From an uncultured Planctomycetales bacterium (GTDB lineage Bacteria > Omnitrophota > Gorgyraeia > Gygaellales > JAHJCI01), in contig CAZPQS010000003.1 of assembly GCA_964588765.1 (NCBI GenBank), positions 1-35,436 on the forward strand: DNA of 35,436 nt, in the 5' to 3' direction. The translations under genes and the position numbers were made by a program. Of the stretch, positions 42 through 34,950 are shown one piece after another (the first letter of the stretch is position 1; every line of letters begins with the position of its first letter). The notes under the pieces were generated by a model. It saw only the letters and a program-made list of their open reading frames with translations. It made no database searches and had not been told where the DNA came from.

Positions 42-1826
42 TTACCTTATAAAAACACTCAAATTATCTTTATTAACGGGGATAAAATATTCATCCAAAT
101 AACTTTGCGCCTGTTTCAATTCCAATCTAAAACGATTATTATCAAGGCTTCTTATACGTTTAATCTTTGCGGCTAATTCGCCGGGGTCGCGGCAAACATC
201 TTTAAGGCTGAGGCACTCAAAAAGAGGGTCAACCTCAAGAGGATAATTCACGTCCAAATAAATAACCGGCCGGCCCATTTTTAATGCCTCCAGGCATACG
301 GTGGTCCAGGTATAAAGCACAACGCTGCATCTTTCAATTTCTTTCTGCATGGGGGGATTATCGGAGATAATAAAATTCTCGGGCAGACAAAAACCCAAAT
401 TGCTTAAAACCGTTTTAACCGGCGTCGCCGGATGAAATCTGAAATATACCTCTTCATGGCTCCCGTCCAATCCCGCTTTAAAAAGAAATTGAAAAACCTT
501 TACGCTATCATTGACGGTTATGGTCAAAGGAACAAAAATCCCGCCATTTTGATTTCTGGGCAGCTCATTCAGGCTAAAAATATATTCCTGGCGCAATGCG
601 CAGCCTGTCGAAAATATCGAATTGGGATAACTGCCCAATCGCCTCATAATCTCCTGGGTCTGCCTGCCCATTGTAACAATTTTATCCGGCAAGGGGATTA
701 TCTTTTCTTCTCCCGACCCCGGAAAATACTTAAAACTATTTTTTGAGACAAAGGCATGCTGAAAACCTATAATTACTGCCTTAGAAGACGCCTTTCGAAT
801 GCCTAAAATACTCATCTTCTCCCAGGCATAATTCTCAAAGGTATAGATAAATGTCTTTACGTCAATAGCTTGGGCAAGGCGCAAACAATAATAATAGTTC
901 ATAAGATTTCCGAAAAAGGAAGTGCCGATAATATCTTTGGAAGTCTCGGCGCAAAACAGGAAAGTTACATCGACGTTATCCAAAGTAATATTTGTTTCAA
1001 TTCTCGGACGGCTGAAATATGTAGAGAATAAACATCTGAATATATCTGTAATCTTAATATACAAGTTTGTCGGAATTATTAAATTGCCGGAGTCATTTTT
1101 AAACCGCGCTATTATCTTTTTGTAATCAGAAATTATTCCGGCGAAGGTAACTACCTTTTCATCGTGGGATGATAAAAAACCGGGCAGACTCTTAAAGTAA
1201 GAATCTTCGTAGGTTTTATCCTTGTAATTACGGTGGTCTACCCATGTTCTAATCACAATATAGTTATCTTTATTATTTATTAAACTTTTTTTATTTCTTA
1301 ATAAAATCCTGCACAAAAGAAGCTTTCCACATTCCCTGACCGCCGTACTTAGCTGCGAGAAAATACCTTTTATCTTACAAACAACATTCTTAAAATAGTA
1401 ACGATACCTGTTTCTGCGGCCGCAGTTCACTATATATTCCTTACGATAATTTAATATTATTTGTTCCTTTAGAACTTCATCCGAACAAATAACCATGATA
1501 TTGGATTCAATCTTGGTTATTATATTGTTAAAGCATATCATTTTATAAAGCCTCTCAAAAAGCTTTGAGTTAAGAGGGTTTTTCTCGGAAAGACAACCGG
1601 CCCACCAATAAATTGTTTTATTTTGGCTGCCTAATGAAGCAATCAAATCAAGATATCTTCGTTCAAACAAGGTCTTGTCCACATCTTTATTTAAATCAAT
1701 CCAGGATAAATCTCGAGGACAATTACAACGCAAATCATCGACATTAATAAAGCTAAAGTCAGTTTTATTAATCCCTGCACACTCGAAGGCCTGTTCTATA
1801 TTATCGAATAGGAAAATCCGTCTCAT
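42..1826 (-). CDS. Orphan surface-carbohydrate biosynthesis protein with C-terminal GT-B-like domain; candidate CMP-ulosonate transferase
   Basis: 594 aa. Motifs YTFENYAWEK, IIGFQH, PLPDKIVTMG, YFRFHP and TWTTVCLEALKMGRPVI resemble GT-B nucleotide-binding motifs. ATGA overlap with the kdsB-like gene. Confidence 0.6.
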   Translation of the reverse strand: MRRIFLFDNIEQAFECAGINKTDFSFINVDDLRCNCPRDLSWIDLNKDVDKTLFERRYLDLIASLGSQNKTIYWWAGCLSEKNPLNSKLFERLYKMICFNNIITKIESNIMVICSDEVLKEQIILNYRKEYIVNCGRRNRYRYYFKNVVCKIKGIFSQLSTAVRECGKLLLCRILLRNKKSLINNKDNYIVIRTWVDHRNYKDKTYEDSYFKSLPGFLSSHDEKVVTFAGIISDYKKIIARFKNDSGNLIIPTNLYIKITDIFRCLFSTYFSRPRIETNITLDNVDVTFLFCAETSKDIIGTSFFGNLMNYYYCLRLAQAIDVKTFIYTFENYAWEKMSILGIRKASSKAVIIGFQHAFVSKNSFKYFPGSGEEKIIPLPDKIVTMGRQTQEIMRRLGSYPNSIFSTGCALRQEYIFSLNELPRNQNGGIFVPLTITVNDSVKVFQFLFKAGLDGSHEEVYFRFHPATPVKTVLSNLGFCLPENFIISDNPPMQKEIERCSVVLYTWTTVCLEALKMGRPVIYLDVNYPLEVDPLFECLSLKDVCRDPGELAAKIKRIRSLDNNRFRLELKQAQSYLDEYFIPVNKDNLSVFIR

Positions 1827-2563
1827 GAGATATACCTATATTTTACTCTATCGGCCTCCATCAGCCGCCTGACTTCAACCAGGTCCTCCGGGATATCTAC
1901 GCTTATATGTGCGCCATCGACCTTAACCGCCCTTATCTTATAACCATGCTCCAATATCCGTAAATATTCGTTAAATTCAACTTCCTCCAGGGGGGTCTGC
2001 GGCCAGGAGGCGTATTTCAAAAGGAAATTTTTACGAAAAGGTACGATAAAAGACATCTTCCACATCGTATCGATTGGTGTACGGGCGTCACTGGGTAAAT
2101 CATTACGTGAACAGTAAAGTATATTGTCGTTTAAATCGAGAACGGCCTTTAAATCAGCGGGACTATTTCTCTTTTTATAGGGAGTAACCAGGACGCTTAC
2201 CTGTACGCTTTCATCTTCAATCAGAGGCTCGAGGGCTTTATCAATGTGCTCGGGATACAGCAGTGGTTCATCCCCCTGGATATTCACCACTATATCAGCA
2301 TCTATATTTTTAGCGGCTTCGGCAATTCTATCGGTTCCGGTTTGATGGCTGGCTGAGGTCATAATCGCTTTTCCCCCGTGATTTACGACAACATCATATA
2401 TCTGGCTGCTGTCGGTTGCGACAAACACATCATCCAGCAAAGAAGCAAGCTGGGCCCTTTTAAATACATGCACTACCATAGGAAGTCCGCCGATATCAAT
2501 AAGGGCTTTATTGGGAAGCCTGCTTGATTTAAGCCTTGAAGGAATAATGCCGACCGCTTTCAT
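1823..2563 (-). CDS. kdsB: 3-deoxy-manno-octulosonate cytidylyltransferase-like (CMP-Kdo synthetase family), divergent sugar-binding region
   Basis: IIPSRLKSSRLPNKAL, HQTGTDRIAE, VNIQGDEPL, LYCSR, LEEVEFNEYLRILEHG, ISVDIPEDL. Confidence 0.85.
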   Translation of the reverse strand: MKAVGIIPSRLKSSRLPNKALIDIGGLPMVVHVFKRAQLASLLDDVFVATDSSQIYDVVVNHGGKAIMTSASHQTGTDRIAEAAKNIDADIVVNIQGDEPLLYPEHIDKALEPLIEDESVQVSVLVTPYKKRNSPADLKAVLDLNDNILYCSRNDLPSDARTPIDTMWKMSFIVPFRKNFLLKYASWPQTPLEEVEFNEYLRILEHGYKIRAVKVDGAHISVDIPEDLVEVRRLMEADRVKYRYIS

Positions 2564-2565: not shown

Positions 2566-4122
2566 TTAGCTCCTTCTTAATATAGGCGATTTAATACCTG
2601 ATAGCAACATTTTAACCTTTTTAATAAAACGGAAAAAATACAAATCTATAACATAAAAATTGCTTCCGTGGGAAAGGCGCCATACAAATATTCTCCGGAT
2701 AATTTTAGCAAAAAGGCTGTTTTGATGTTTGGGCTTACTTAATATTGCGGTATATATACGAAGGTAATTCTGCATGCTTTCGTGATATTTGAAAAATCCG
2801 TCCCAAACCCATTGGTTGACATCAACAATTAATGCCCCGTCGACATATAAGCGTCCTTTCCATCCCTCGATTGATTCCGGAAGTTTAATATTATATTTTT
2901 TTATCATCTCTTCGAATATCGGGGAGCCGGGATAATAGCGAAATATAAAAGGCCCTGATATATCTGTGAAAGGATTAATTTTAAGTAATTTCGAACAAAG
3001 TCTATACGTTGCGAATGTGTCTTCCTTCTCCTCATTCGGCATACAAGTCATAAAAGAAAGGCGCGCCGTTATCTTTGTTTTTGCAAGTTCCCCTACCGCG
3101 CATACTATATCTTCTCTTTTAATATCTTTATGCATATAATCCAGCATTTTCTGTGAGCCGCTCTCTGCTCCCATGGCAATGGACTTTATGCCAATTCTTT
3201 CCATTTCAGGAACCAAAGCCTTAAATAAGTTATTGTTAAAATAAGATACTCTTGACCAAATTCTACCTAAGAATTTAAGATTCTCAGCCTTAACTAATTG
3301 AATGAGTTCAATTAGACGTCTTTTATTTATGCAAAAATCTTCATCCAGAAACAAAAAAGCATTAGCACCATATCGAGATTGCAGCTTTTTTATCTCTTGC
3401 ACGATAGAAATAGCTGACCTGGTTCTATATCGTCTTTTTAAAATAACATTGATACAAAAATCACACCTGAAACAACATCCCAAACCCGTTAAAATAGGCA
3501 TTAGTTTTATTTTCTCGTTACCGAACTCCCGCTCATAAACACTGGTCGCATTAAGGTATTTAGGTACATCCAAAAGGTCAAAATCAAAATAAGGAATCTG
3601 TGATATATCGTCGAGCTCGCGGGGTTCGGTAATTTTGACATTTCCATTCCTGTCGCAAAAAGCAATTCCTTTTATATCCTCGAGCTCTCTTTTCCCGGCA
3701 AAATAATCCATTATCTCCAAAACTGTCTCTGCCCCTTCGTTAACCACCGCTATATCAATATAAGGATTATCGACGGTTTGTTTCGGGAATAATGTCGGGT
3801 GTACGCCTCCAAAAATAATAGGTATATCGGGATTAACCTCTTTTATTTTTTTTGCTAATTCGTATGCCTTGATTACCTGCGAAGTCATAATTGAGAAACC
3901 GACAAAAATAACATCATCGGACAGCTTATCAAATATTACGCTTTCATAACAAGGGTCGACCTGAGCATCAACAAGAGACACGGGAAAACCATTTTTCCTT
4001 AAAATAGACCCTATCACCATAATCCCCGTTGCAGGATAAGTCTCTCCGGTTTTCCCATAGTGATAGTCAGACCCTGAGGGTAAATTAATGAGAATTATTT
4101 CTTTTTTTGATTCTGATTTCAT
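2566..4122 (-). CDS. Cobalamin-binding radical SAM protein (class B methyltransferase-like)
   Basis: N-terminal B12-binding domain (VGFSIMT, IIFGGVHPT, NEGAET), CxxxCxxC motif CCFRCDFC, FLDEDF, GAESGSQKML, YPGSP. Confidence 0.9.
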   Translation of the reverse strand: MKSESKKEIILINLPSGSDYHYGKTGETYPATGIMVIGSILRKNGFPVSLVDAQVDPCYESVIFDKLSDDVIFVGFSIMTSQVIKAYELAKKIKEVNPDIPIIFGGVHPTLFPKQTVDNPYIDIAVVNEGAETVLEIMDYFAGKRELEDIKGIAFCDRNGNVKITEPRELDDISQIPYFDFDLLDVPKYLNATSVYEREFGNEKIKLMPILTGLGCCFRCDFCINVILKRRYRTRSAISIVQEIKKLQSRYGANAFLFLDEDFCINKRRLIELIQLVKAENLKFLGRIWSRVSYFNNNLFKALVPEMERIGIKSIAMGAESGSQKMLDYMHKDIKREDIVCAVGELAKTKITARLSFMTCMPNEEKEDTFATYRLCSKLLKINPFTDISGPFIFRYYPGSPIFEEMIKKYNIKLPESIEGWKGRLYVDGALIVDVNQWVWDGFFKYHESMQNYLRIYTAILSKPKHQNSLFAKIIRRIFVWRLSHGSNFYVIDLYFFRFIKKVKMLLSGIKSPILRRS

Positions 4123-5186
4123 CGCTGTAATGCCTTAACAATATTTTGCCTTAACCAACGGATTACAAGCCCGCGCCTTGTTAAAGCACCGGAACATCTC
4201 CTGCAGGTTAACGGCATATTAGCGCCTTTCCTTAAATTATCTAAGAAGCCGGCGTTCTTCTCCAGAATATCATAGATGGATTCTCTTTTGATGTCGCCCA
4301 TACACAACAAATCATCATAAGCAAAGCAGCAGGGAACAACGTTTCCGCTAGCCAAAATACCTATAACCCTGCTTGGGCAGACATCCGGATTCCTGGAGGG
4401 ATAAAAAGTCGTCAGTCTATTCCAATCTACAAATCTCTTAATTTTAAAAGAAATGTTCTCGCTGAGAATCAGCGGCTTCTGATTACCGGCATAATGAACG
4501 CTCACCTTACTCAAATATTCATCTATATCAACATTGGACTTTAAACGGCTGTCATAGCGATTTAAATGCTTCAGGAATTGCCTCAAATCATCTCTGAGGT
4601 CCGAAAGGGTATCGTATAGATAAGGACTCCCGCATTCGGTCCCGAGTATTTTTGCTTTCAGCCTTTTACCCTTATGTGAAAAGTTGCAAATTAAATCAAC
4701 TACAACTTTTAATGAATTATCCTGGGCTATTTTTAAAAATTCCGAGATATTCTTTTTATACTCCTGAAAATCAATTTTAATCCCTCTTATATAGTTAAAA
4801 GACATTTGATTTAAAGTCTGCAATGATACTTTCACGCTATCCGGTCGTGCTTCTATCAGCTTGGATATCACTTCTCTTGAATTAAACAATATCCCGTTAG
4901 TTATAATATGTATAGCTAAGCCCTTGTCTTTTGCATATTTAATAAACCCGTAAATACGCTTATCCAGCAGGGGTTCATTAATATGTTGTAATAAAACTTC
5001 TTTAACACCCTTATCTTTCGACAATAAATCAATAATACTATATACGATATCGGTAGATAAAACCTTTCCCTTGTCGCGTCTTTGCGGATAAATACAAAAT
5101 TGACAGTTCATATTGCAGGTTGACATTGTCTCTATTTGAACGGCCGAAAAACCGTATTTAGAAATACTTATTTGTTGGGTATTCAT
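4119..5186 (-). CDS. Radical SAM protein with SPASM/twitch domain
   Basis: CNMNCQFC, NEPLLD, TNG, and C-terminal CPSR...GNVVPCC...GDI...CRRC. Confidence 0.88.
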   Translation of the reverse strand: MNTQQISISKYGFSAVQIETMSTCNMNCQFCIYPQRRDKGKVLSTDIVYSIIDLLSKDKGVKEVLLQHINEPLLDKRIYGFIKYAKDKGLAIHIITNGILFNSREVISKLIEARPDSVKVSLQTLNQMSFNYIRGIKIDFQEYKKNISEFLKIAQDNSLKVVVDLICNFSHKGKRLKAKILGTECGSPYLYDTLSDLRDDLRQFLKHLNRYDSRLKSNVDIDEYLSKVSVHYAGNQKPLILSENISFKIKRFVDWNRLTTFYPSRNPDVCPSRVIGILASGNVVPCCFAYDDLLCMGDIKRESIYDILEKNAGFLDNLRKGANMPLTCRRCSGALTRRGLVIRWLRQNIVKALQR

Positions 5187-5216: not shown

Positions 5217-6116
5217 TTATATTTTATAATCTAACTTAATCATTACATCCTTGGCAAACCTCATAAAGAATTCCAGGTCTGAATCATTAAAATAATTCTT
5301 CCAGTCGCCGATGATGCCCTTTCTTGGATGAGCAGGAAAAACAACCTTATAACGCTTGCTATCGTTACGATTAAAAAGGTACCTGAGAGTTCTTTTTGCC
5401 TTTCTTTTAGCTCTGGAGAATATATCGGACGAATAAGCAGAAACAAATTCAGGCCTTTTAATTTTATCGAAAAGGCGCTCTTGCATCCCAAGGGAAGATG
5501 CAAGATTTCTTATCGTCGCCTCAAAATCATTATAAAGCGTTTCATACTTTAGATGAACCGCGTCTTCCTTGGCTAACCACTCATTAACATGGGCGCGCCA
5601 ATACTCAACCCGATTCTTGTCCTTTTCTTCAAATCCCCTGATAGGCATATAATATTTATTCGGCATTCTTATGAACTCACTAAAAGTACATTCTTTGATT
5701 CGAATCTCAGTTCCTGTGGATAACCCCCCTGCGGCATCTTTCTGGTAAAAATACCATGAGAGGATAACATCTCTCCCGTCTCTATAAATATTCACTATTT
5801 TTGAATGTTCATAAATTGTCTTTATTATTGCTTTTTCTTTCTCATTCAAATAAAATTCATTGTCAAGGGCGCGTGAAATCTCAGAGGGCATAAGATGAGT
5901 TTTAAATACTTTTATCTTATTATTATCTTCGCTTAAGCATTGCTGCCATTCTTTCGTATATGTTTTATCGTGAGTCAGAAATAACCCTTCTAAAGTCGAA
6001 TATGTATTTCTTATTTGAGGAAATTCAACATCTCTAAAATTCATACAAAGTGCATTTATAATAAAGTGCGTTCCGGACCTGGGGTGCGTGGCAATGAGAA
6101 TAAATTTGTTTTTCAT
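5217..6116 (-). CDS. Sulfotransferase-fold protein (cytosolic SULT-like)
   Basis: 5'-PSB loop THPRSGTH, FKTH, 3'-PB motif YRDGRDVILS, LKYE, C-terminal RKGIIGDWKNYF. Confidence 0.9.
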   Translation of the reverse strand: MKNKFILIATHPRSGTHFIINALCMNFRDVEFPQIRNTYSTLEGLFLTHDKTYTKEWQQCLSEDNNKIKVFKTHLMPSEISRALDNEFYLNEKEKAIIKTIYEHSKIVNIYRDGRDVILSWYFYQKDAAGGLSTGTEIRIKECTFSEFIRMPNKYYMPIRGFEEKDKNRVEYWRAHVNEWLAKEDAVHLKYETLYNDFEATIRNLASSLGMQERLFDKIKRPEFVSAYSSDIFSRAKRKAKRTLRYLFNRNDSKRYKVVFPAHPRKGIIGDWKNYFNDSDLEFFMRFAKDVMIKLDYKI

Positions 6117-29011: not shown

Positions 29012-29680
29012 TTATACATTCACCTTATTACCAATAATCTTTTTACTAAATAATGCTTTTATCAGTTCGGAATCAAAGTTTGTTGCCGGGTTTTCTCTCT
29101 CTGGATGCCATTGGATACCGATAAACCTTGCTTGGCGATGATAAATGCCCTCAACAACGCCGGCAGGACTCTTAGCAAAAATATTGAATTTCGAAGATAG
29201 TCCTGCAGTCATAATCCCCTGATTATGAAAACTATTCACAACCAACTCTTTACCTGTTGTTTTATCGCTGAATAATTCTTCGATAATCGCCACCTTATGG
29301 TTAAAATTAGCGTGTTTTTCTCCACTGGCTTTATAAATATCCTTAGTCAATTCTCCGCCAAAGAAAACATTAAGAACCTGCATGCCGCGGCAAACCCCCA
29401 AAATCGGCAGATCATTCTTTAAACAATAGTCAATAATCCCTTTTTCTGTCTCGTCTTTTTGGGGAAAACTGCCCCAATCATTGCCGTTAGAAAGAATAAC
29501 CCCCTCAATCGGCAGACCCTTAAGCGTAGCTAAGGCTTTTTCAGGATGATTCACTAAGGGAACAAGCACCACTTGCGGCATAGTCCTATATATATAGATA
29601 TACCAATCCTGCGCCAAGGCATCCCTTGTCTCCGGATAATCCTGATTCTCCGCAACCCGCATTGTAATTGCTATAAGCAT
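29012..29680 (-). CDS. Class I glutamine amidotransferase-like hydrolase; by context gamma-glutamyl-CDP-amidate hydrolase (Cj1417-like)
   Basis: ETRDAL.QDW, nucleophile GVCRGMQ, VNSFH, QWHPER (Cys-His-Glu triad). Confidence 0.85.
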   Translation of the reverse strand: MLIAITMRVAENQDYPETRDALAQDWYIYIYRTMPQVVLVPLVNHPEKALATLKGLPIEGVILSNGNDWGSFPQKDETEKGIIDYCLKNDLPILGVCRGMQVLNVFFGGELTKDIYKASGEKHANFNHKVAIIEELFSDKTTGKELVVNSFHNQGIMTAGLSSKFNIFAKSPAGVVEGIYHRQARFIGIQWHPERENPATNFDSELIKALFSKKIIGNKVNV

Positions 29681-29694: not shown

Positions 29695-32097
29695 TTAAGC
29701 CTCGATTGATATAACATTGCCTTGAACACAGTTAATTTCTATTGCCCGCGAACGCAGCACACGGTCAAATATCTGCTCACCGCAGCCAATCGCCGCCGGG
29801 ATACCAAATTCGGCACAACGAATAGCCATATGCGAATTTGCCCCGCCATATTTGGTAATAAGGCCTTTTATTGAGCGGGAAAAAATCCAGTCAAAGCCGG
29901 GATCAGCCCCCTCGATCAAAACAATACAATCGGAAATATCTACCCCCTCATCGCTTTTACCGTCCAGTAATACATAATTACCTCTGACAATCTTTTTTGT
30001 TATAAAATTTGGCTTATTCAGTAATAAGGGAACGATTGCGACATCCTCGGGGGTCTCAATAATATAAGGTAAAGATAAAGCCATGGTAATTTCATGCCTT
30101 TGTTTTTCCTGATTAGCAATATCTCTTAAATGTTGTTCAATATTTTTATCGCAGGCAATACTCATCGTATCCAGAATGGACTTTAGGGAAATAAAGGACA
30201 GCTCTTCCCGATTTAAGCCGATATTCTCCCCCCAGGCGGCAATAAGCTCTAAAGCATCGCTAACATTTTTAGTAAAAATAAATTTGGCATATTCTCTAGC
30301 CTGAATTGCTTTTGCGATATATTCAAGTAGTTGATTAGCCTTTATGCTGAACCCAAAACTTCCAAGTGCCTCATCGATTTGCTTTAACTGCTCCTTAGAA
30401 AAAGAAAAACCTTGAGCGTCATCCCGACGCAAAGGCCGCTTTATATTACCGTTAATCAAATCGTCTCTTTTGTCATACCTTTTTGAAACAATATCATAAG
30501 TACCCGGACGCAGATGCCCGTATTTAGACATAAATTCTTTTGCGGTTAATTGTTGGCATATAAGCCGGTCAAAATCATCAACCACCTCGGTAGCTATTGT
30601 CTTTATTGATTTTTGGAAAGAATCTATCTGTGATTCAGTCGCTAAGCCGCAAGAAACAAAGGAACGCAAGAAATCCTTGGCAATAAAGGCATGCCTTGCC
30701 AAGATGCTGAAGGGCAGCGTTCCCCACCTCACGCAATCTTCCAGCAGGCTTGATACGGCTGATAGGTCTTTTAATTCACCAGAGGCAATTAAAGCCTTTC
30801 TTCTTTCTTCAAGGGCTTCTATCTTCTGCAAACTATTCTCTAAAGAAGCTACTCTACCGCTTATTAAATTATCGGTTAACTTAAGTAAACTCTTATAAAA
30901 ATTGTTCTCTTCATCCTTATTTAAAATTCCCGGTATCTGAGTTGATATTTTATTTTTAAAATCAAGGCTAAGCGCGGTTATTGCTACATCAAACTCAATC
31001 TTGTCCTGAAGCTCTTTATGCTCGGCGAGACGTTTAATCCAAGCATTAACTAATTTTTGAGAAATTACCGGATTAAGGTCACTAGGAAGAAAAGAATTAA
31101 AACTCGCACGGACATCAATGTAGGGCTGTCCACATAAAGAAATCATCAGCCTTACGCCTTTGGGCTCGTAATAGCCCATTAATTTACGGGCTTCACGCCA
31201 AGTATGATTCGTAATTAAATGCTTATATAAAGAAATAGCCAGCGGCCGCGGAGATGTTCCAATCATTTCTGCCGGATTCCAATCAGGCATTCTGCCGAAA
31301 AGGGTAGTATCGCCGTAAAGACCGTCTCTTGGCTTAAAGGACCTCTCAATAAAGTCTTGACTGTTTTTAATTGCTTCGTTAACTTTACTTGCGATATCCC
31401 CACTCCAGATGGGTTTAGTTGATATCCTGCGTACCTGGAAAATATAAACCTCCATTGCCGGACTAACCGCATATTCTATATCTAGAGAGTTATCGCCGGT
31501 AATTTGCTCTATTTCCTTTACCGCGAGCAACAATGATTTAAAACGCTCCGAGCGTAATTGCCTGATGGCATCGCGATTAACCAGCAAGGTCCGATTGCTA
31601 TTCTCTTTACCCGCAGTCACCGTATCGGTTAAACCTGTCTCATCATCATAATTGATTACATAGTAGGGAGCGCCAGTATTAAGGTCCTGTGTAAATATTA
31701 CCCCGCTCATCGAAACATTGTTTATCATAAGCTGCACTAAAACCTGGTCCTTAGGTTCGAATCTATCGCTCGATTTTCTGTAGCTGTCCATTACTTTATT
31801 AATGGCATCGCTAAGCGATTGTTTGTCCTCAGGCGAAACATTGGGCACTGAATCATGAATCCCGGCTAAAGATGCTTGATGATCGTCCTCAGTATAAGCA
31901 CTGGAACGCACGATAACCTTATCTTTACCAAAAAACTTCCCTAATTCACTAAGAATATAATCAGCGTCTTCTCGCCAATTTGCGGCAGAAAAGTAATAAA
32001 GCTTGGGAACCTTTGAAAGCTTAAGAACCGGAGATAGAAACTCTAAAGTCTTTGCCTTTGTAGTAAACTGATATTTGTTATTAATTACCTTTGTCAT
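29695..32097 (-). CDS. PPDK/PEP-synthase-like kinase; L-glutamine kinase (Cj1418-like, P-N bond forming)
   Basis: ATP-grasp N-terminus (TKAKTL, VIVRSS..ED, SGVIFT, DIEYA, FQVR), central MPDWNPAEMIG and YGHLRPGTYDI, C-terminal phospho-His domain ADPGFDWIF...GGANSHMAIRCAE. Start placed at ATG 32097, just after the upstream stop. Confidence 0.88.
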   Translation of the reverse strand: MTKVINNKYQFTTKAKTLEFLSPVLKLSKVPKLYYFSAANWREDADYILSELGKFFGKDKVIVRSSAYTEDDHQASLAGIHDSVPNVSPEDKQSLSDAINKVMDSYRKSSDRFEPKDQVLVQLMINNVSMSGVIFTQDLNTGAPYYVINYDDETGLTDTVTAGKENSNRTLLVNRDAIRQLRSERFKSLLLAVKEIEQITGDNSLDIEYAVSPAMEVYIFQVRRISTKPIWSGDIASKVNEAIKNSQDFIERSFKPRDGLYGDTTLFGRMPDWNPAEMIGTSPRPLAISLYKHLITNHTWREARKLMGYYEPKGVRLMISLCGQPYIDVRASFNSFLPSDLNPVISQKLVNAWIKRLAEHKELQDKIEFDVAITALSLDFKNKISTQIPGILNKDEENNFYKSLLKLTDNLISGRVASLENSLQKIEALEERRKALIASGELKDLSAVSSLLEDCVRWGTLPFSILARHAFIAKDFLRSFVSCGLATESQIDSFQKSIKTIATEVVDDFDRLICQQLTAKEFMSKYGHLRPGTYDIVSKRYDKRDDLINGNIKRPLRRDDAQGFSFSKEQLKQIDEALGSFGFSIKANQLLEYIAKAIQAREYAKFIFTKNVSDALELIAAWGENIGLNREELSFISLKSILDTMSIACDKNIEQHLRDIANQEKQRHEITMALSLPYIIETPEDVAIVPLLLNKPNFITKKIVRGNYVLLDGKSDEGVDISDCIVLIEGADPGFDWIFSRSIKGLITKYGGANSHMAIRCAEFGIPAAIGCGEQIFDRVLRSRAIEINCVQGNVISIEA

Positions 32098-32102
32098 TGT
32101 AG

Positions 32103-33125
32103 CTATATCGCCTTTTTGCATTTTCTACATGCTGAGGGCATCTCATCCTGGCTGCCATTTATTCTATCCCTCAACTCTTTAAGCTTATTACTATTCCAAA
32201 TCTCATAAATTGAATTATCATAGATATTACCCACGGGCATCTGATAGGCATAGCAAGAACAGCAAGGGAAAACTAACCCGCTGTTACGTATAATAAGCCT
32301 CTGATAAGGCATCGCACATTCTTTAAAATCTATACCGGCGATACGGAATCTCTCTTTAAACCTCTCATATTTTTCGGTTCCGACAAAAGGATTGGCTACC
32401 TCTTGTAAAGTTACATAGTCTACTCTTTTGGCCCAATAATCAGTAAACTCATCCACCTCGGATATATTTTCTTTAGTTTTAATAAATGAAACTCGGGTTA
32501 TCGGTAAAACGCTCCCCAGAGATTTTTTAACTTGAAGAAAAGTATCTATATTGCTCATTGTCTTTTCAAAATTAGCCCCTACGCGCATTTTTTCGTAAGT
32601 CTCTTTACGTATAGAGTCTATGGAAAATTTTATCTGGGTCAAACCAGCCTCGATAAGCTGTTTTGAATTTTGAGCATTAAGTAATGTTGCATTGGTAACG
32701 ATATAGATATCAATAACTCCCGCCTGCTTGGCATAATGGATATATCTTTCAATATCCTTTAATAAAAGGGGTTCATTATAGCCATTTAATTGCACCGAAC
32801 ATAGGCCATGCTTGAGGCCTTCATCGATGATTTCACAATATTTTTCAAATGATATCCTTGCCTTTTCATCTACGGTATAGCCTCTTTTATCAGGCGGAAT
32901 TGATAAGATGCACATCGAACATCTCAAATTGCAGCCATAAAAAATCTCAAAATTTAAATGCAGGGGGTATTTTTGCACCACCTGGCAATTAGATGCCCTA
33001 TCCCATTTATTGCGATAATCACGATATCTCTGCCCAAGTTCATCGGCCAGAATATCATGATACGACCTCTTTTTATAAATTACCGTGTGAGCTAAATCTG
33101 GTTTTTCTTTTAGATAAGCGCTCAT
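32103..33125 (-). CDS. Radical SAM protein with SPASM/twitch domain
   Basis: CNLRCSMC, NEPLL, TNATLL, FSIDS, CAMPY...GLVFPCC...GNI...IWNS...CRKC. Confidence 0.9.
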   Translation of the reverse strand: MSAYLKEKPDLAHTVIYKKRSYHDILADELGQRYRDYRNKWDRASNCQVVQKYPLHLNFEIFYGCNLRCSMCILSIPPDKRGYTVDEKARISFEKYCEIIDEGLKHGLCSVQLNGYNEPLLLKDIERYIHYAKQAGVIDIYIVTNATLLNAQNSKQLIEAGLTQIKFSIDSIRKETYEKMRVGANFEKTMSNIDTFLQVKKSLGSVLPITRVSFIKTKENISEVDEFTDYWAKRVDYVTLQEVANPFVGTEKYERFKERFRIAGIDFKECAMPYQRLIIRNSGLVFPCCSCYAYQMPVGNIYDNSIYEIWNSNKLKELRDRINGSQDEMPSACRKCKKAI

Positions 33126-33136: not shown

Positions 33137-34234
33137 TTATTCAAAACTGTTCAACAGATGCTTTGTGCTCTCCTTATAAGACTCCCATTGACCAATGTCC
33201 AACCAAGACTTCTCGCTAATCGGGTAAACCCCGATTGTCCCCTTCTTTGCTTTAACTGCGCGAATTAAATCGGTCATAGAAAAAGTTCCATTTTGAGAGA
33301 TATATTTCAAAACCTTTTTATCGATAACATACATACCGGTATTAACCAGGAAGTCATATTCGGGTTTTTCTTCAATTACCTTTAACTCACCGCCGGAATT
33401 TATCTTCATAACCCCATAGGGTACGACAAAATGCTGCATTGAGCCTACTACGGTAATGTCATAACCTTTGCTTTTGTGAAAATTATATATATCCACATAA
33501 TTTGCCTTGATTATCGTATCGCAGTTAGAAAGAAAAAATGTATTGGATAAATCCTTGGGAAGATGCTTCAGGCCTCCGGCCGTACCCAAAGGCTTCTCGC
33601 CTTCATTGATGTATTCAATGTCATAGTTGTTAGTAGTATTATTAAAGTAAGATTTGATCATCTCCGCCTTATATCCAAGAATGAAATATATTTTACCTGA
33701 AATCTCCTGCATAAAATGCTCCATTATAACTTCGATTACCGGCTTATCATGTATGGGAACCAAAGCCTTTGGCAAAATTTTAGTAAACGGAGCCAAGCGG
33801 CTACCTTGCCCTCCAGCCATAATAACAACCGAGGCATTCAAGATAGTTCTTTTAATCTCATGCCCGAAATCATCGCTAATAATATCTTTCCAAAAATACA
33901 TATCGACAATTTTCATATCATCGTCGACAACCGGCAAGGAGTGCCCGCCGGATTTAATGGCTTTATTGCGTATTTCTTCCTTAGAACCATTCTTGATTAA
34001 AATCTGATTAACGTATACCGGATCACTGTTGTATATCTTGTTAACTCGCTTGGAAAGTGCCCCATCGGCAAGAATCCACCGTCTGACATCGCCATCGGTA
34101 ACCGTACCCAAAAGCCTTTTGTTTTTATCAACGACAAAAAGTATTTTTTTGCCCGTCTGGTCCATCTGTCTCATGGCTTTTTTTATGGTCAGGGTTTTAT
34201 CAATGAAAAATTTTTTCCATTTATTACTCATCAT
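33137..34234 (-). CDS. CBS-domain sugar-phosphate nucleotidyltransferase (PtmE/LegX-like, legionaminic acid pathway)
   Basis: N-terminal CBS pair (GTVTDGDVRR), VIMAGGQGSRL..PKAL, PLGTAG, VPYGV, EEKP, WLDIG. AGGAG at 34241-34245 favours ATG 34234. Confidence 0.88.
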   Translation of the reverse strand: MMSNKWKKFFIDKTLTIKKAMRQMDQTGKKILFVVDKNKRLLGTVTDGDVRRWILADGALSKRVNKIYNSDPVYVNQILIKNGSKEEIRNKAIKSGGHSLPVVDDDMKIVDMYFWKDIISDDFGHEIKRTILNASVVIMAGGQGSRLAPFTKILPKALVPIHDKPVIEVIMEHFMQEISGKIYFILGYKAEMIKSYFNNTTNNYDIEYINEGEKPLGTAGGLKHLPKDLSNTFFLSNCDTIIKANYVDIYNFHKSKGYDITVVGSMQHFVVPYGVMKINSGGELKVIEEKPEYDFLVNTGMYVIDKKVLKYISQNGTFSMTDLIRAVKAKKGTIGVYPISEKSWLDIGQWESYKESTKHLLNSFE

Positions 34235-34950
34235 CACTTACTCCTTTTTAATTGCCGCCTATTATTTAGAAATTCTGCAAACATAAAATCTTGATTACTG
34301 TCAATATCGATTGACCGCTCTTCGGGCATTACATAAGCAAAGGTTTTATCCCCCCAAAAGCATTTCTTCTGCATTATATAGTCACAAAAAGCTACATATA
34401 CTGCCCCATTTACCTTGTAAAACTGAGGCAAATCTTGTCGATTAATCATTCTAAGTTTAAATCGGGTAAAGTTTTTCATACACCCATTCTTAGGCAGTTC
34501 ATTGGTTAAGTAAAACGGATAATCGGTTTTACATGTAGAAATCACAACCTTAGCCTTCTTAGAAAATAACGTCTCCACCGCCTTATCTATATCCTGTGCT
34601 ATCCTAAGCGGGGAGGTAGGCTGAAGTAGTATAATCAGACTAAAAGCCTCACCCACATCCTTAAACCAGTTAAGCGCATGCAGCATAACATCCATACCTT
34701 TAGCCGTATCCGTAGCTAACCTTTTTGGCCGTAAAAAAGGAGTCTTTGCGCCATATCTTTTGGCAACGGCTCTTATTTTCCTATTATCGGTAGAGACAAC
34801 AATTTCGTCAATGTACCTACTCTTCTTTGCCGCAGCGATAGTCCAAGCAATTAGCGGCTTGCCATTTAAGGGCTTTATATTTTTACCGGGTAAGGATTTA
34901 CTTCCTCCCCTTGCCGGAATTAAAGCTAAAACTCTTTTATTTTTGTACAT
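34234..34950 (-). CDS. neuA: Acylneuraminate cytidylyltransferase (CMP-NeuAc/CMP-Leg synthetase)
   Basis: ALIPARGGSKSLPGKN, VSTD, PFLRP, LLQPTSPLR, RQDLP, NGAVY, SIDIDS. Confidence 0.92.
   Translation of the reverse strand: MYKNKRVLALIPARGGSKSLPGKNIKPLNGKPLIAWTIAAAKKSRYIDEIVVSTDNRKIRAVAKRYGAKTPFLRPKRLATDTAKGMDVMLHALNWFKDVGEAFSLIILLQPTSPLRIAQDIDKAVETLFSKKAKVVISTCKTDYPFYLTNELPKNGCMKNFTRFKLRMINRQDLPQFYKVNGAVYVAFCDYIMQKKCFWGDKTFAYVMPEERSIDIDSNQDFMFAEFLNNRRQLKRSK

Follow-up and report, generated by a model that had tools for sequence, protein, structure and literature searches.

In Campylobacter, the enzymes Cj1415-Cj1418 yield CDP-phosphoramidate 3'-phosphate, according to the account in PMC11800397. 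The Pse/Leg transferases of T. forsythia, proven by knockout, are described in PMC5420450 as TagB/GT-B-like proteins with an HP motif, with BFO_1060 as their homologue in strain 92A2. Putative relatives of both systems are encoded in the 35.4-kb window analysed here (the whole stretch of DNA, one contig), which appears to encode the synthesis, activation and attachment of several sialic-acid-like sugars, partly through enzymes unusual for such work. The locus is best explained as a mosaic put together from five or more portable cassettes, all read in one direction and recurring across other Omnitrophota genomes. In the whole reading of a five-cassette mosaic with three CMP-ulosonates, a tailoring cassette, a phosphoramidate donor and GT-B/TagF-like transferases we place slightly better than even confidence; if it is true, the known chemistry of bacterial surfaces becomes wider.

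Genomic Setting and Gene Content

The window has 31 long ORFs, every one of them on the minus strand and spaced from its neighbours by -26 to +30 bp (Table 1); they may be transcribed as a single unit. Among RecA homologues of 76-90% identity, those named by organism all belong to Omnitrophota/Omnitrophica, bar one labelled just "bacterium". GC content is 38.6% in the window vs a genome median of 43.9%, and contigs C1 and C4 resemble the window in low GC, strand and glycan content. The best explanation is that the host is an uncultured sediment Omnitrophota bacterium and the window one part of an extensive surface-glycan island that is low in GC and hypervariable.

The CTP_transf_3 family (Pfam gathering score 22.6 bits) has seven matches across the 1.32-Mb assembly, and five of these lie on the 35.4-kb contig, i.e., on 2.7% of the assembly, in exactly the genes named in the initial annotation. 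Such abundance is also seen elsewhere, with 6-9 matches per genome in five other Omnitrophota genomes. The other genes listed in that annotation are likewise real, but it left out genes that account for much of the array: the phosphoramidate set, two sulfotransferases, two radical SAM/SPASM genes and three B12-radical-SAM genes. Roughly one quarter of the array (g27-g21) relates to a phosphoramidate donor and not to ulosonates.

Table 1. Genes of the window, their assignments and profile matches.
Gene	Position	Strand	Assignment	Profile match (bits)
g01	42..1826	-	594-aa member of large uncharacterised family; putative ulosonate transferase, cassette 2	
g02	1823..2563	-	KdsB-paralogue cytidylyltransferase, cassette 2	CTP_transf_3 175.4
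g03	2566..4122	-	B12-binding radical SAM enzyme	B12-binding 69.8, Radical_SAM 54.3
g04	4119..5186	-	Radical SAM/SPASM enzyme	Radical_SAM 73.6, SPASM 36.4
g05	5217..6116	-	Sulfotransferase	Sulfotransfer_1 63.5
g06	6120..6878	-	HAD-family phosphatase, cassette 2	HAD_2 81.9
g07	6899..8536	-	B12-binding radical SAM enzyme	Radical_SAM 87.9, B12-binding 71
g08	8546..10288	-	HMGL-like (DRE-TIM) aldolase fused to MptE-like domain	HMGL-like 99.7
g09	10269..11699	-	B12-binding radical SAM enzyme	Radical_SAM 89.3, B12-binding 56.5
g10	11674..13644	-	656-aa GT-B/TagF-like putative ulosonate transferase, cassette 1	
g11	13645..15000	-	GT2 with C-terminal pseudo-cytidylyltransferase, cassette 1	Glycos_transf_2 92.1, CTP_transf_3 34.2
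g12	15020..16213	-	GFO/IDH/MocA oxidoreductase, cassette 1	GFO_IDH_MocA 63.9
g13	16215..16895	-	NeuA-like cytidylyltransferase, unusual catalytic loop	CTP_transf_3 54.8
g14	16892..17686	-	HpcH/HpaI class II pyruvate aldolase, cassette 2	HpcH_HpaI 121.2
g15	17688..18743	-	Ldh_2-family 2-oxo/2-hydroxy-acid dehydrogenase, cassette 1	Ldh_2 340.9
g16	18762..20834	-	690-aa orphan, rare family; putative GT-B-like transferase	
g17	20838..21740	-	Sulfotransferase	Sulfotransfer_1 47.5, Sulfotransfer_3 44.7
g18	21752..22549	-	SpsF-like cytidylyltransferase	CTP_transf_3 66.5
g19	22562..23599	-	Divergent NeuB-family synthase with SAF domain	NeuB 99.3
g20	23608..25614	-	668-aa orphan, g16 family; putative GT-B-like transferase	
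g21	25607..26386	-	CDP-alcohol phosphotransferase-family membrane protein	CDP-OH_P_transf 48.5
g22	26383..27081	-	Formyltransferase-like, travels with phosphoramidate set	Formyl_trans_N 30.3
g23	27068..27739	-	223-aa protein travelling with phosphoramidate set	
g24	27742..28251	-	APS-kinase-family kinase, Cj1415-like CDP-amidate kinase by context	NF004041 186.1 (cut-off 127)
g25	28273..29019	-	NTP_transf_3 nucleotidyltransferase, Cj1416-like by context	NTP_transf_3 55.3
g26	29012..29680	-	Gamma-glutamyl-CDP-amidate hydrolase-like amidotransferase (Cj1417-like)	Peptidase_C26 108.5
g27	29695..32121	-	PRK05849-type PEP-utilising kinase	NF004508 912.2 (cut-off 501)
g28	32103..33125	-	Radical SAM/SPASM enzyme	Radical_SAM 58.8, SPASM 52.6
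g29	33137..34237	-	CBS + sugar-1-phosphate nucleotidyltransferase	NTP_transferase 115.7, CBS 43.2
g30	34234..34950	-	NeuA/LegF/PseF-like CMP-nonulosonate synthetase	CTP_transf_3 88.3
g31	34937..35434	-	NeuC-type hydrolysing UDP-GlcNAc 2-epimerase, C-terminal portion, truncated at contig end	

Cassettes with a Synthase and a Cytidylyltransferase

Synteny and homologues were surveyed in 400 other Omnitrophota genomes; since kin genomes among the loci are non-independent, independent events are fewer than the synteny counts suggest. The locus had initially been read as a series of synthase, synthetase and transferase modules, with their conservation as units named as a test. Sub-sets do recur by synteny in other genomes, so that the modularity stands, but with boundaries other than those proposed. 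The three types of condensing enzyme (NeuB-like, HpcH and HMGL/DRE-TIM) were located correctly, and all three look intact.

The truncated g31 covers positions 233-365 of the 365 in TIGR03568 (145.6 bits), and the end of contig C109 encodes positions 1-225 of a NeuC profile of the same family, straight after a canonical NeuB (TIGR03569, 509.6 bits vs a cut-off of 399.65). Judged by this junction, C109 abuts the window and its canonical NeuB is the partner synthase of g30. With the PseF model g30 scores 176 bits, under the cut-off of 205.7. Homologues of g29, which we take to be PtmE-like, follow NeuC in G174 (45% identity) and share an island with NeuC in G007 (46%). Together, NeuB, NeuC, g30 and this nucleotidyltransferase would produce a Neu/Leg-type nonulosonate.

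The second synthase, g19, is far more divergent, reaching 140 bits with the NeuB equivalog TIGR03569 (cut-off 399.65); its best match among solved structures is 6NCS (E 6.9e-21), with which the active-site positions align. Orthologues (41-58% identity) occur in four of the 400 genomes, and one of these, G174, keeps the g19/g18/g17 trio: the g18 orthologue (58%) lies downstream of that of g19, with one gene between, and is followed by the g17 orthologue (53%), within a shared order of NeuC (60%), CBS-NTP (45%), g19 (58%), g18 and g17. Near g19 in the three other genomes no homologues of window genes were seen. We suggest that g19, together with g18 (SpsF-like) and g17 (sulfotransferase), yields a second NeuB-type product, possibly sulfated; genes for PAPS supply are found elsewhere in the assembly (ATP-sulfurylase/APS-kinase on C105, CysD/CysN-like genes on C1).

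The third cassette (cassette 2) combines two aldolases with a KdsB paralogue. The N-terminal part of g08 matches the "putative aldolase" 3DXI (E 2.2e-45), while its MptE-like match (29.7 bits) is under the Pfam cut-off of 34.6, and g14 matches the 2-keto-3-deoxy-sugar-acid aldolases 1DXE (E 3.5e-39) and YfaU (2VWS, E 1.1e-38). A full-length HMGL-MptE fusion is present in nine of the 400 genomes and is adjacent to HpcH in five; HAD (g06 orthologues, 31-58% identity) accompanies it in five and g01 in three, and a KdsB-like gene lies within ~5 kb of it in five, three others being cut by contig ends. Collinearity with the window extends over HpcH, fusion, HAD, g03, g02 and g01 in two genomes (G077 and G095), at 41-71% identity, and g01 orthologues (52-54%) come after the KdsB-like gene in both. 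The conserved B12-radical-SAM gene of the cassette is g03 (orthologues of 61-62% in G077, G095 and G411, 39% in G140); no g05 orthologue was seen in the other cassette-2 loci. As HpcH is separated in the window from the remaining cassette by five genes, its assignment depends on other genomes, two of which (G052 and G267) have it directly beside the KdsB-like gene. The genes with which HpcH travels are the KdsB-like gene and the fusion rather than the NeuA-like g13. We read cassette 2 as encoding a pyruvate-aldolase pathway, independent of PEP, whose Kdo-like acid would then be dephosphorylated, perhaps C-methylated, CMP-activated and transferred.

The product of g02 could be ordinary CMP-Kdo, since it scores above the cut-offs of the KdsB models (NF009905, 257.6 bits vs 255; TIGR00466, 162.7 vs 155.2). 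In a phylogenetic tree, eight cassette-linked KdsB-like copies including g02 form a clade (96/99 support) apart from six housekeeping KdsB, and both copies are kept in all five genomes tested.

Synteny backs all three synthase/synthetase pairs. Since each cassette has an enzyme forming C-C bonds and its own cytidylyltransferase, the probable outcome is a different CMP-activated 2-keto-3-deoxy (ulosonic) acid from each of the three. Separate routes to three CMP-ulosonates are plausible, with a fourth possible; the initial figure of up to about four stays an inference.

Cytidylyltransferases and a Cassette without Its Own Synthase

Alignment places an Arg/Lys loop and an acidic motif in g30 (where the latter is C-terminal), g02, g13 (with DxD) and g18 (Arg/Ser/Lys loop), and four of the five domains look catalytic. 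In all nine g11 orthologues, 8 residues that would form the catalytic loop are deleted from the GT2-fused domain, and E-V-R replaces D-I-D. It is a conserved pseudo-enzyme, which reduces the five synthetases initially counted to four plausible ones. The cytidylyltransferases share 20-31% identity with g30, which marks them as old, divergent paralogues rather than recent duplicates.

One of them, g13, aligns over its full length with N. meningitidis CMP-NeuAc synthetase 1EYR (E 1.1e-10) and has orthologues (44-50%) in G095, G242, G016 and a Pelagibacteraceae locus. It belongs to cassette 1, whose GFO, Ldh_2, cytidylyltransferase, GT2-pseudo-cytidylyltransferase and g10 genes occur together in 6 of 13 g10-anchored loci; g11 orthologues (49-54%) adjoin g10 in eight of the 13. 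Orthologues of g12 (51-53%) are found in seven loci, those of g15 (55-59%) adjoin GFO in seven, and a B12-radical-SAM enzyme is part of the cassette as well, with g07 homologues (37-41%) sitting within cassette 1 of other genomes. In those genomes the conserved cassette around g13, g11 and g10 lacks a condensing enzyme. The most likely role of cassette 1 is to tailor and re-activate a ulosonate produced elsewhere and to transfer it.

Large Putative Transferases

Four proteins of 594-690 aa (g01, g10, g16 and g20) yielded no Pfam family at E<=0.001, as had been noted at the outset. Their proposed GT-B-like nature holds for g10 at least, by fold, but not as one family, for sequence comparison sorts them into three: g01, g10 and g16/g20. 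The g01 and g10 families are linked by hhalign (probability 60%, E 8.7e-5, 554 columns); no profile link from the g16/g20 family to either was seen.

The predicted model of g10 (pLDDT 88.2, pTM 0.89) points to a GT-B/TagF-like fold, with a Foldseek probability of 1.00 to GT-B proteins and VIA Z-scores of 14.0 to 7mi0, 11.6 to TagF and 11.4 to TarL. Homologues occur in 19 of the 400 genomes. The g01 protein, initially listed as an orphan, is not rare: 2,900 representatives match it at E<=0.001; with TIGR04326 it scores 66.9 bits, under the cut-off of 250. The family of g16 is rare, with five homologues in a 5.8-billion-protein search, presence in two of 40 relatives and, when species genomes were scanned, a single locus, in a single-cell genome of Pelagibacteraceae. 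Its predicted model is weak (pLDDT 61.5), and so is its resemblance to GT-B (E 4.2e-4 at best, with a TM-score of about 0.2). BLASTP aligns g20 with g16 at 19% identity over 693 columns (E 2e-19), and g20 homologues (27-34%) are present in G357, G140, G016 and G007. Atlas neighbours of g20, to be taken as leads only, are unnamed Omnitrophota clusters and LIC12162/Glyphos_transf/Capsule_synth clusters. We propose that these large proteins would be GT-B/TagF-like transferases using CMP-activated donors.

Putative Phosphoramidate Genes and Comparison with Known Systems

The kinase g27, read as a Cj1418-like L-glutamine kinase on its profile match, has homologues in eight of the 400 genomes, each beside homologues of g26 and g25, so that the triad is complete in 8/8 loci. 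With NF045546 g26 scores 108.9 bits, under the cut-off of 250. A g24 homologue joins the set in two of the eight loci; g24 is the second APS-kinase-family copy in the genome, separate from the ATP-sulfurylase/APS-kinase frame on C105. G115 is collinear through g22, with homologues of g23 (26% identity) and g22 (33%). Pfam and NCBIfam searches gave no match for g23, and the sole match among solved structures by sequence (E 0.027) was not meaningful. No g21 homologue was found in the eight loci at E<=1e-8.

The g27-g22 set is likened to the Campylobacter phosphoramidate set and would make a donor of that type (3'-phospho-CDP-amidate). The sole NCBIfam match of g10 is the BFO_1060 family, and is weak (22.8 bits vs a cut-off of 200). 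A His-Pro pair (H465-P466) is invariant across 35 aligned sequences of the g01 family, with Arg-Pro and Lys-Pro at this position in g10 and g16, and resembles the HP motif that PMC5420450 describes in the Pse/Leg transferases of T. forsythia.

Gene Content and Genomic Setting of the Array

The window comprises the whole of contig C3 in an assembly of 1.32 Mb (173 contigs, rated 90% complete) and carries 31 long ORFs (g01 to g31), all encoded on the minus strand and separated from their neighbours by gaps of -26 to +30 bp. The gene families listed in the initial annotation, i.e., five CTP_transf_3 cytidylyltransferase domains, a NeuB-like synthase, an HpcH-type and a DRE-TIM-type aldolase and four large orphans, were each recovered with Pfam and NCBIfam, and five of the seven CTP_transf_3 matches of the genome fall on this contig, which represents 2.7% of the assembly. 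The annotation had passed over three B12-binding radical-SAM genes (g03, g07, g09), two radical-SAM/SPASM genes (g04, g28), two sulfotransferases (g05, g17), a HAD-family gene (g06), a GFO-family gene (g12), an Ldh_2 gene (g15), a CDP-alcohol phosphotransferase-family gene (g21) and the run g27-g24. No Rfam family reached its gathering score in the window, and a Pfam scan found no methyltransferase family in it.

Homologs of the RecA encoded on contig C38 (76-90% identity) that carry an organism name are assigned to Candidatus Omnitrophota/Omnitrophica, with the exception of one labelled "bacterium." Two sequencing runs matched the locus; both are DNA runs of a single study labelled sediment metagenome, with no RNA run among them, and one, possibly the source sample itself, contained 99% of the words sampled from a 9.9-kb stretch of the window.

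The GC content of the window is 38.6% compared to a genome median of 43.9%, and two further contigs, C1 (51.6 kb) and C4 (30.8 kb), are equally low. The three contigs together span 117.9 kb (8.9% of the assembly), and of the 25 radical-SAM proteins that they encode, 14 belong to C1, 6 to C4 and 5 to the window. C1 and C4 are likewise single-strand arrays of glycan genes, which include proteins of 1315 and 1441 aa with three radical-SAM stretches each, an 807-aa fusion of GT4, radical SAM and SPASM domains, three Peptidase_U32, two PMT_2, a sulfatase, two Phosphodiest, CysD/CysN-like genes, three DegT aminotransferases and several methyltransferases. The seventh CTP_transf_3 gene of the genome is located on contig C76 beside a class-III aminotransferase, a GNAT and a DegT + aldo/keto-reductase fusion, and this group looks like another activated-sugar module outside the window.

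Cytidylyltransferase domains and coordinates of features in the window, in other contigs of the assembly and in loci of other genomes (Pfam gathering score of CTP_transf_3, PF02348, 22.6 bits)
Feature	Location	CTP_transf_3 score (bits)	Description
g01	window, 42-1826		orphan
g02	window	175.4	KdsB-like
g11	window	34.2	domain C-terminal to GT2
g13	window	54.8	cytidylyltransferase
g18	window	66.5	cytidylyltransferase
g30	window	88.3	cytidylyltransferase
g31	window, 34937-35434		C-terminal part of NeuC
C1 array	C1, 1-51588		glycan-gene array
CysD/CysN-like	C1, 16466-18492		sulfate activation
C4 array	C4, 1-30827 (L018-L022 for C1 and C4 together)		glycan-gene array
C76 module	C76, 799-6126 (L023)	110.9	SpsF-like gene and neighbours
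g13 orthologue	G016:C2, 310-3799 (L016)		with small-acid enzymes
g20-like gene	G357:C26, 11035-13632 (L060)		with APS-kinase-like and g10-like genes
820-aa protein	G077:C2, 1246-3708 (L138)		CTP_transf_3 at residues 586-776 only
333-aa protein	G077:C2, 10760-11761 (L138)		4Fe-4S/LdpA-like

Cytidylyltransferases and a Conserved Pseudo-Enzyme

The other four cytidylyltransferase domains share only 20-31% identity with g30, which indicates that they are old paralogues. In the family alignment A4, g30, g02, g13 and g18 retain an N-terminal Arg...Ser...Lys loop and a C-terminal acidic (DxD-type) motif, which we take, from the enzyme of N. meningitidis, to be the nucleotide-binding loop and the metal motif, respectively; g13 aligns over its full length with the CMP-NeuAc synthetase of that organism (1EYR, E = 1.1e-10), with loop and acidic positions matched. 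The domain of g11, in contrast, shows an 8-residue deletion over the loop and reads E-V-R for D-I-D. Since this defect is shared by g11 and all 8 orthologues (9/9; 49-54% identity), the domain is a conserved pseudo-cytidylyltransferase rather than a decayed copy. The count of five synthetase domains proposed earlier thus stands at the level of Pfam, where all five pass, but only four of them keep the catalytic loop and the acidic motif. The GT2 half reads S-G/A-H-C in 9/9 orthologues (g11 and those of L055-L059, L061, L063, L064) at the position of the DxD motif usual in GT2 enzymes, so that, together with the loop deletion, both halves of the conserved fusion are non-canonical.

Recurrence of Gene Cassettes in Other Omnitrophota

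All 31 window proteins were compared (tblastn, E<=1e-8) with loci of about 20 kb around their homologs in a sample of 400 Omnitrophota genomes; as kin genomes are not independent, the resulting counts express recurrence and not the number of events. Around the orphan g10, which served as anchor in 13 loci, GFO, Ldh_2, a small cytidylyltransferase (g13 in the window), the GT2-pseudo-cytidylyltransferase fusion and g10 itself occur together in 6/13 (G418, G105, G052, G235, G109, G140), with identities of 51-53% for GFO, 55-59% for Ldh_2, 49-54% for the fusion and 26-28% for g10, and in five of these six a B12-radical-SAM gene is located between Ldh_2 and the cytidylyltransferase. The fusion adjoins g10 in 8/13 loci; 12/13 have a CTP_transf_3 gene no more than a few kb away from g10, and that of G016 is found in the adjoining locus. 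We refer to this set as cassette 1; it has a cytidylyltransferase predicted from its sequence to be competent, but no synthase. None of the 13 g10-anchored loci contains HpcH inside the cassette, and HpcH is inserted into cassette 1 in the window.

In G016 the orthologue of g13 is followed by a 2-hydroxyacid dehydrogenase, a ketol-acid reductoisomerase and a short-chain dehydrogenase, which hints at a small branched hydroxy-acid in this version of the cassette. A 19-kb single-cell contig of a Pelagibacteraceae member (L017) combines a gene of the g16 family (34% identity) with two cytidylyltransferase genes, one of g13 type (44%) and one LegF-like (34%), and suggests that these glycan genes are shared across phyla.

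The initial annotation had described the array as a concatenation of modules, a claim for which conserved module synteny was the decisive check, and indeed sub-sets of the genes recur together in other genomes around the anchors g10, g08, g19 and g27. The array is a mosaic of portable cassettes. Adjacency, here or elsewhere, backs three synthase/synthetase pairs, namely NeuB of contig C109 with g30, g19 with g18, and HpcH (with g08) with g02, and the product of each cassette can be suggested only from the chemistry of the respective enzyme families.

NeuB-Type Synthases

The 4.1-kb contig C109 carries at its end a canonical NeuB (TIGR03569, 509.6 bits, cut-off 399.65) and, behind it, positions 1-225 of the 365 positions of the NeuC profile, and g31 at the right end of the window covers positions 233-365. 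This indicates that C109 abuts the right end of the window and supplies the synthase for g31/g30. An in-frame TGA flagged in NeuB homologs proved to be the natural stop codon of these genes, with which the match ends, and the NeuB ORF of C109 is intact.

The second synthase, g19, matches NeuB (99.3 bits) and SAF (31.8 bits) of Pfam, but remains below the equivalog cut-offs for NeuB (TIGR03569, 140 vs. 399.65) and PseI (TIGR03586, 100.1 vs. 340.25). Among solved structures, g19 best matches a sialic acid synthase of Leptospira type (6NCS, E = 6.9e-21), with SpsE (3G8R, 1VLI) and NeuB (1XUU) next, and it retains the Glu/His/Lys positions of 6NCS, which we assume to be the active-site residues in NeuB. 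Judged by sequence, g19 and the two condensing enzymes g14 and g08 look intact. Orthologues of g19 (41-58% identity) were found in 4/400 Omnitrophota genomes, and only G174 among them has kept NeuC, a CBS-nucleotidyltransferase, g19, g18 and the sulfotransferase g17 together.

Pyruvate Aldolases and a KdsB Paralogue

Cassette 2 consists of g14 (HpcH), g08 (a fusion of a DRE-TIM aldolase with an MptE-like domain), the HAD-family gene g06, the B12-radical-SAM gene g03, the KdsB-like gene g02 and the orphan g01. The product of g14 (PF03328, 121.2 bits) matches over residues 4-258 the 2-dehydro-3-deoxy-galactarate aldolase 1DXE (E = 3.5e-39) and the 2-keto-3-deoxy-sugar aldolase YfaU (2VWS, E = 1.1e-38), and it scores under the NCBIfam equivalog cut-offs for HpaI, GarL and RhmA. 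Residues 13-314 of g08 match a "putative aldolase" (3DXI, E = 2.2e-45) as well as 4-hydroxy-2-oxovalerate aldolases, and its C-terminal MptE-like domain is sub-threshold (29.7 vs. 34.6 bits). The full-length fusion was found in 9/400 other Omnitrophota genomes, while about 172 further genomes of the 400 encode only a stand-alone aldolase paralogue of ∼320 aa; in the genome of the window, a search with g08 returned no second match. This stand-alone protein has ∼40% identity to residues 11-297 of g08 and was seen in loci L118-L137 and some 150 more places.

HpcH adjoins the fusion in five of the nine genomes (G077, G095, G411, G262, G418), and a KdsB-like gene is found at most ∼5 kb from it in five (G077, G095, G262, G140, G191), contig ends cutting the loci of G411, G418 and G273; HAD is present in five of the nine, a g03-type radical-SAM gene in four and g01 in three. 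In G077 and G095 the order is HpcH, fusion, one gene, HAD, g03, KdsB-like gene and g01, at 41-71% identity, and in G077, which has the cleanest copy, the cassette follows a Pse-type cluster. The extra gene of G077 encodes the 4Fe-4S/LdpA-like protein, at the place where the window has the B12-radical-SAM gene g07, and upstream in the same locus lies the gene for the 820-aa protein. G052 and G267 have HpcH and the KdsB-like gene as immediate neighbours.

A tree of 16 sequences, none of which was dropped, groups g02 with seven copies that are linked to the cassette or adjacent to HpcH (support 96/99) and sets this clade apart from six housekeeping KdsB, and g02, being placed in this separate clade, is not an ortholog of the housekeeping KdsB of the phylum. 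Both kinds of KdsB were present in 5/5 genomes tested, each of which has 6-9 CTP_transf_3 matches.

A Probable Phosphoramidate Gene Set and Sulfate Activation

The four enzyme types of the phosphoramidate donor pathway lie contiguously in the window as g27 (NF004508, 912.2 bits vs. 501), g26 (NF045546, 108.9 bits, below the cut-off of 250), g25 (NTP_transf_3) and g24 (NF004041, 186.1 vs. 127). Homologs of g27 occur in 8/400 genomes, with g26 and g25 adjacent in 8/8 and g24 in 2/8; G115 is collinear with the window from g27 through g22, and in G100 a Neu/Leg set is located 3.6 kb upstream of the g27-type set. In C. jejuni, CDP-phosphoramidate 3'-phosphate is made by the Cj1415-Cj1418 enzymes, as described in part of PMC11800397, and the predicted enzyme types of g27-g24 match those of this pathway. 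A search of solved structures with g23 returned nothing.

Sulfate activation is encoded twice in this small genome, by a 637-aa ATP-sulfurylase + APS-kinase frame on C105 (L012/L014) and by CysD/CysN-like genes within the glycan array of C1. As g24 is a second APS-kinase-like copy beside the organism's own sulfate-activation genes, PAPS should be available to the sulfotransferases g05 and g17, which leaves g24 free for a phosphoramidate role. The presence of these genes led us to reject the idea that the sulfotransferases use the phosphoramidate donor for want of PAPS. The orphan g20 was also dismissed as a working candidate for the phosphoramidate transferase, since homologs of g16, g20 and g21 were found in none of the 8 loci with a g27-type set. 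A locus of G357 that lacks the g27-g25 triad has a g20-like gene (27% identity) directly adjoined by an APS-kinase-like gene (34% to g24) as well as by one resembling g10.

Large Orphan Proteins

The four orphans (g01, g10, g16 and g20; 594-690 aa, without a Pfam family) do not form one family at the level of sequence. BLASTP links only g16 with g20 (19% identity, E = 2e-19), and profile comparison with hhalign gave low probabilities for the g16 family (A1) against g01 (0.5%), g10 (0.1%), A3 (6%) and A2 (0.04%). The families of g01 and g10 are connected by hhalign at a probability of 60% (E = 8.7e-5, 554 columns), and neither is linked to the g16 family (6% and 0.04%). Sequence searches of solved structures with g16, g01 and g10 gave nothing meaningful (best E = 0.11-0.18).

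The g16 family is rare, with five homologs and presence in 2/40 relatives; a scan of species genomes gave a single locus, in a Pelagibacteraceae single-cell genome, but it used a narrow search pattern and is no measure of absence. For g10 we found 46 homologs, all unnamed proteins, from Omnitrophota, Brocadiaceae, Scalindua and unlabelled sources, and the family is present in 19/400 other Omnitrophota genomes. In one homolog (P0016, 979 aa), the protein is fused to radical SAM and SPASM domains, which ties the g10 family physically to radical-SAM chemistry. The g01 family is much larger, with 2,900 representatives at E<=0.001 and 470 at E<=1e-30.

The structural model of g10 (pLDDT 88.2, pTM 0.89) shows a GT-B region from about residue 215 to 651. 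Foldseek related it with a probability of 1.00 to UDP-GlcNAc 2-epimerases and GT-B glycosyltransferases, at target TM-scores of <=0.64, and VIA gave Z = 14.0 for 7mi0, 11.6 for TagF and 11.4 for TarL across residues 49-645. The model thus places g10 in the GT-B fold with two Rossmann-like domains, in a TagF/TagB-like subgroup. For g16 the model is weak (pLDDT 61.5), with marginal matches to GT-B. In the atlas, the nearest neighbours of g01 and g20 are clusters of unnamed ∼600-660-aa proteins, commonest in Omnitrophota, followed by LIC12162, Glyphos_transf and Capsule_synth, all of which are leads only.

The sole NCBIfam match of g10 is the BFO_1060 family (NF046086), at 22.8 bits against a cut-off of 200 and restricted to residues 492-589. 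According to passages of PMC5420450, BFO_1060 is the homolog in strain 92A2 of Tanf_01245 and TFUB4_00887, whose knockouts lose a Pse or Leg derivative from the O-glycan of T. forsythia and whose products are TagB/GT-B-like with D/E-D/E-G and HP motifs. A His-Pro pair (H465-P466) is invariant in 35 sequences of the g01 family, and the aligned site reads Arg-Pro in g10 and Lys-Pro in g16; by profile alignment, this site may correspond to the published HP motif of CMP-dependent GT-B sialyl/Kdo/NulO transferases. g01 matches the surface carbohydrate biosynthesis protein TIGR04326 at 66.9 bits, below the cut-off of 250. In Herbaspirillum, a "surface carbohydrate biosynthesis protein" and a "Lic12162 family" transferase are encoded just downstream of neuABC (sections of PMC6679464). 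A literature search for LIC12162, TIGR04326 and LIC13510 returned annotation only, with no experimental function reported.

Alternative Explanations

The array might make only one or two ordinary Neu/Leg-type acids that are heavily decorated, with the extra cytidylyltransferases re-activating tailored forms rather than other backbones, and with the aldolases, Ldh_2, GFO and radical-SAM enzymes building N-acyl or O-linked groups (hydroxy-acids, methyl, sulfate, phosphoramidate). The lack of a condensing enzyme from cassette 1 in other genomes, the small-acid enzymes (including Ldh_2) around the g13 orthologue of G016 and the usual position of the cassettes beside a complete NeuB/NeuC or Pse-type cluster would all fit, as would the more than a dozen Pse/Leg derivatives found as CMP-sugars in C. 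jejuni alone (part of the SugarBase preprint). We nevertheless consider it unlikely, given two distinct NeuB-family synthases within one array and a dedicated clade of KdsB paralogues co-inherited with pyruvate aldolases. HpcH-family enzymes, moreover, yield 2-keto-3-deoxy acids, the substrate class of these cytidylyltransferases, and we know of no KdsB-type enzyme acting on nine-carbon diamino sugars. It is quite improbable that g02 is simply a capsule-type second CMP-Kdo synthetase, such as KpsU, fed by the housekeeping Kdo pathway, with HpcH, the HMGL-MptE fusion and the adjacent radical-SAM genes serving unrelated functions and without any new ulosonate from the cassette. g02 does exceed the KdsB-named cut-offs of NF009905 (257.6 vs. 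255), NF003952 (244.2 vs. 193) and TIGR00466 (162.7 vs. 155.2), GT-B-type beta-Kdo transferases with an HP motif are known, and a housekeeping KdsB on C13 implies that a Kdo pathway presumably exists. But g02 stays below two other such cut-offs (NF003950, 190.9 vs. 234; NF003948, 180.3 vs. 281), the cassette copies are separated by long branches from housekeeping KdsB, the gene order from HpcH to g01 is kept over several families of the phylum, and HpcH adjoins the KdsB-like gene directly in two further genomes. We prefer to read the array as making several CMP-ulosonates from portable cassettes.

Part of the array could also serve a small CMP-linked secondary metabolite instead of a surface glycan, much as phosphonate biosynthesis employs a B12-radical-SAM enzyme to methylate a cytidylylated intermediate (Fom1/Fom3). 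This would account for the many radical-SAM genes and for the matches of the B12-radical-SAM genes to models of P-methyltransferases and natural-product methylases, all of them far under cut-offs; it is very improbable in view of the Pfam scan of all 31 proteins, which detected neither a PEP-mutase family nor another hallmark of phosphonate pathways, the wealth of glycosyltransferases, NeuB/NeuC, PMT_2 and an ABC transporter in the array and its neighbours, and the GT-B-like nature of the large proteins. Finally, a chimeric or foreign contig, in which the co-occurrence of modules would not be biological, could be suspected from the fragmented metagenome assembly and the GC content five points under the genome median, but strand, spacing and GC are uniform along the contig, long stretches are collinear with other Omnitrophota genomes, including a contig of 404 kb in G077, the C109 junction matches within a few residues of the NeuC profile, and a sequencing run, though maybe the source sample, covers the stretch sampled from the window almost completely. 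An assembly or binning artefact of this kind is extremely doubtful.

A Possible PEP-Independent Route and Its Significance

To our knowledge, every described pathway to an ulosonic acid uses a PEP-dependent synthase of the NeuB or KdsA type. Speculatively, and with considerable doubt, cassette 2 might represent an undescribed, PEP-independent route to a CMP-ulosonate with C-methylation by B12-radical-SAM enzymes, and it might be a candidate for the genetics of the "higher-carbon" acids of Magnetospirillum. HpcH, possibly together with the DRE-TIM fusion, would build the 2-keto-3-deoxy backbone, and B12-radical-SAM enzymes would C-methylate the acid of cassette 2, or Neu/Leg-type acids, so that the chain would be extended or branched. 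The proteins g03, g07 and g09 pass the Pfam cut-offs for B12-binding and radical SAM domains, remain far below those of all named equivalogs and, with the B12-binding domain at the N-terminus, have the architecture of B12-dependent radical SAM methyltransferases, as which they are predicted to act. In Magnetospirillum, mass spectrometry revealed unassigned CMP-ulosonic acids with an extended C10-marker backbone and a series spaced by 14 Da, as reported in part of the SugarBase preprint (2026), in the main text of which neither "radical" nor "cobalamin" appears. B12-radical-SAM methylases conserved in ulosonate cassettes would be natural candidates for such extended-backbone chemistry.

Nonulosonate clusters, KdsB paralogues, the phosphoramidate donor pathway and GT-B transferases are known kinds of systems. 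What appears to be new is the conserved pairing of pyruvate aldolases with a dedicated clade of KdsB paralogues, the GT2-pseudo-cytidylyltransferase fusion, the B12-radical-SAM genes embedded in these cassettes and the density of all these in a small Omnitrophota genome; no description of any of them was found in the portions of the literature covered by our search. Among the texts covered, those on Omnitrophota, radical SAM and glycosyltransferases contained nothing on this kind of locus, the listed matches on nonulosonates made no mention of Omnitrophota/Omnitrophica, and the listed ones on cytidylyltransferases and ulosonic acids made none of HpcH.

Bacterial surfaces are capped by ulosonic acids (sialic, legionaminic, pseudaminic acid, Kdo), which determine how hosts, phages and immune systems recognise them. 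Cassette 2 would represent a different way of making or diversifying such sugars and, if this is true, the Omnitrophota islands would be a rich source of new acidic sugars. The loci also offer testable functions for large uncharacterised families (the g01 family, LIC12162-like proteins and the GT2-pseudo-cytidylyltransferase fusion) and would extend the Campylobacter phosphoramidate donor pathway to an environmental phylum. In a streamlined genome of 1.3 Mb, glycan islands rich in radical SAM take up about 9% of the assembly, which bears on the self-presentation of these very small, possibly host-dependent cells.

Comparison With Known Systems

With the neuBCA, leg/ptm and pse clusters of Campylobacter, Leptospira, Tannerella and other bacteria, the pair of C109 NeuB and g30 shares a NeuB-type synthase, a NeuC-type epimerase, CTP_transf_3 and a CBS-nucleotidyltransferase, and the second pair, g19/g18, resembles SpsE/SpsF. 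However, g19 differs from the synthases of these clusters in lying far under the NeuB and PseI cut-offs and in being coupled to a sulfotransferase, and the window lacks the dehydratase, aminotransferase and acetyltransferase that would complete a Leg pathway.

Cassette 2 resembles the Kdo pathway and capsule-type second CMP-Kdo synthetases in that g02 passes some of the KdsB-named cut-offs, in its HAD phosphatase, KdsC being the HAD phosphatase of the Kdo pathway, and in the transferase-like protein that follows. Unlike that pathway, it lacks a KdsA-type PEP-dependent synthase and has instead the class II pyruvate aldolase HpcH, the DRE-TIM-MptE-like fusion and a B12-radical-SAM gene, and the clade of g02 is separate from housekeeping KdsB.

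The phosphoramidate set shows the same row of PEP-utilising kinase, amidotransferase-like hydrolase, nucleotidyltransferase and APS-kinase-like kinase as Cj1415-Cj1418 of C. jejuni, but here it occurs in Omnitrophota beside Neu/Leg genes (as also in G100) and is accompanied by two unexplained genes, g22 and g23, which are conserved in G115; the window, moreover, has no recognisable methyltransferase for an O-methyl phosphoramidate. To the TIGR04326 and "LIC12162-family" proteins of Leptospira-type O-antigen loci there are connections, all below cut-offs or leads only, through the weak TIGR04326 match of g01, one g10 homolog with PF27859 ("LIC12162") and the atlas neighbours of g01 and g20. The Tannerella Pse/Leg transferases and TagB/TagF/TarL, finally, share with g10 the GT-B fold with an extra N-terminal region; further likenesses to the former are the site of g10 beside cytidylyltransferase genes and, possibly, the His-Pro pair of the g01 family, an HP motif being described for the Tannerella enzymes (PMC5420450). 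The orphans of the window differ from them in their size of ∼600-690 aa and in being unrelated at the level of ordinary sequence comparison, and the window in combining three separate families in one array.
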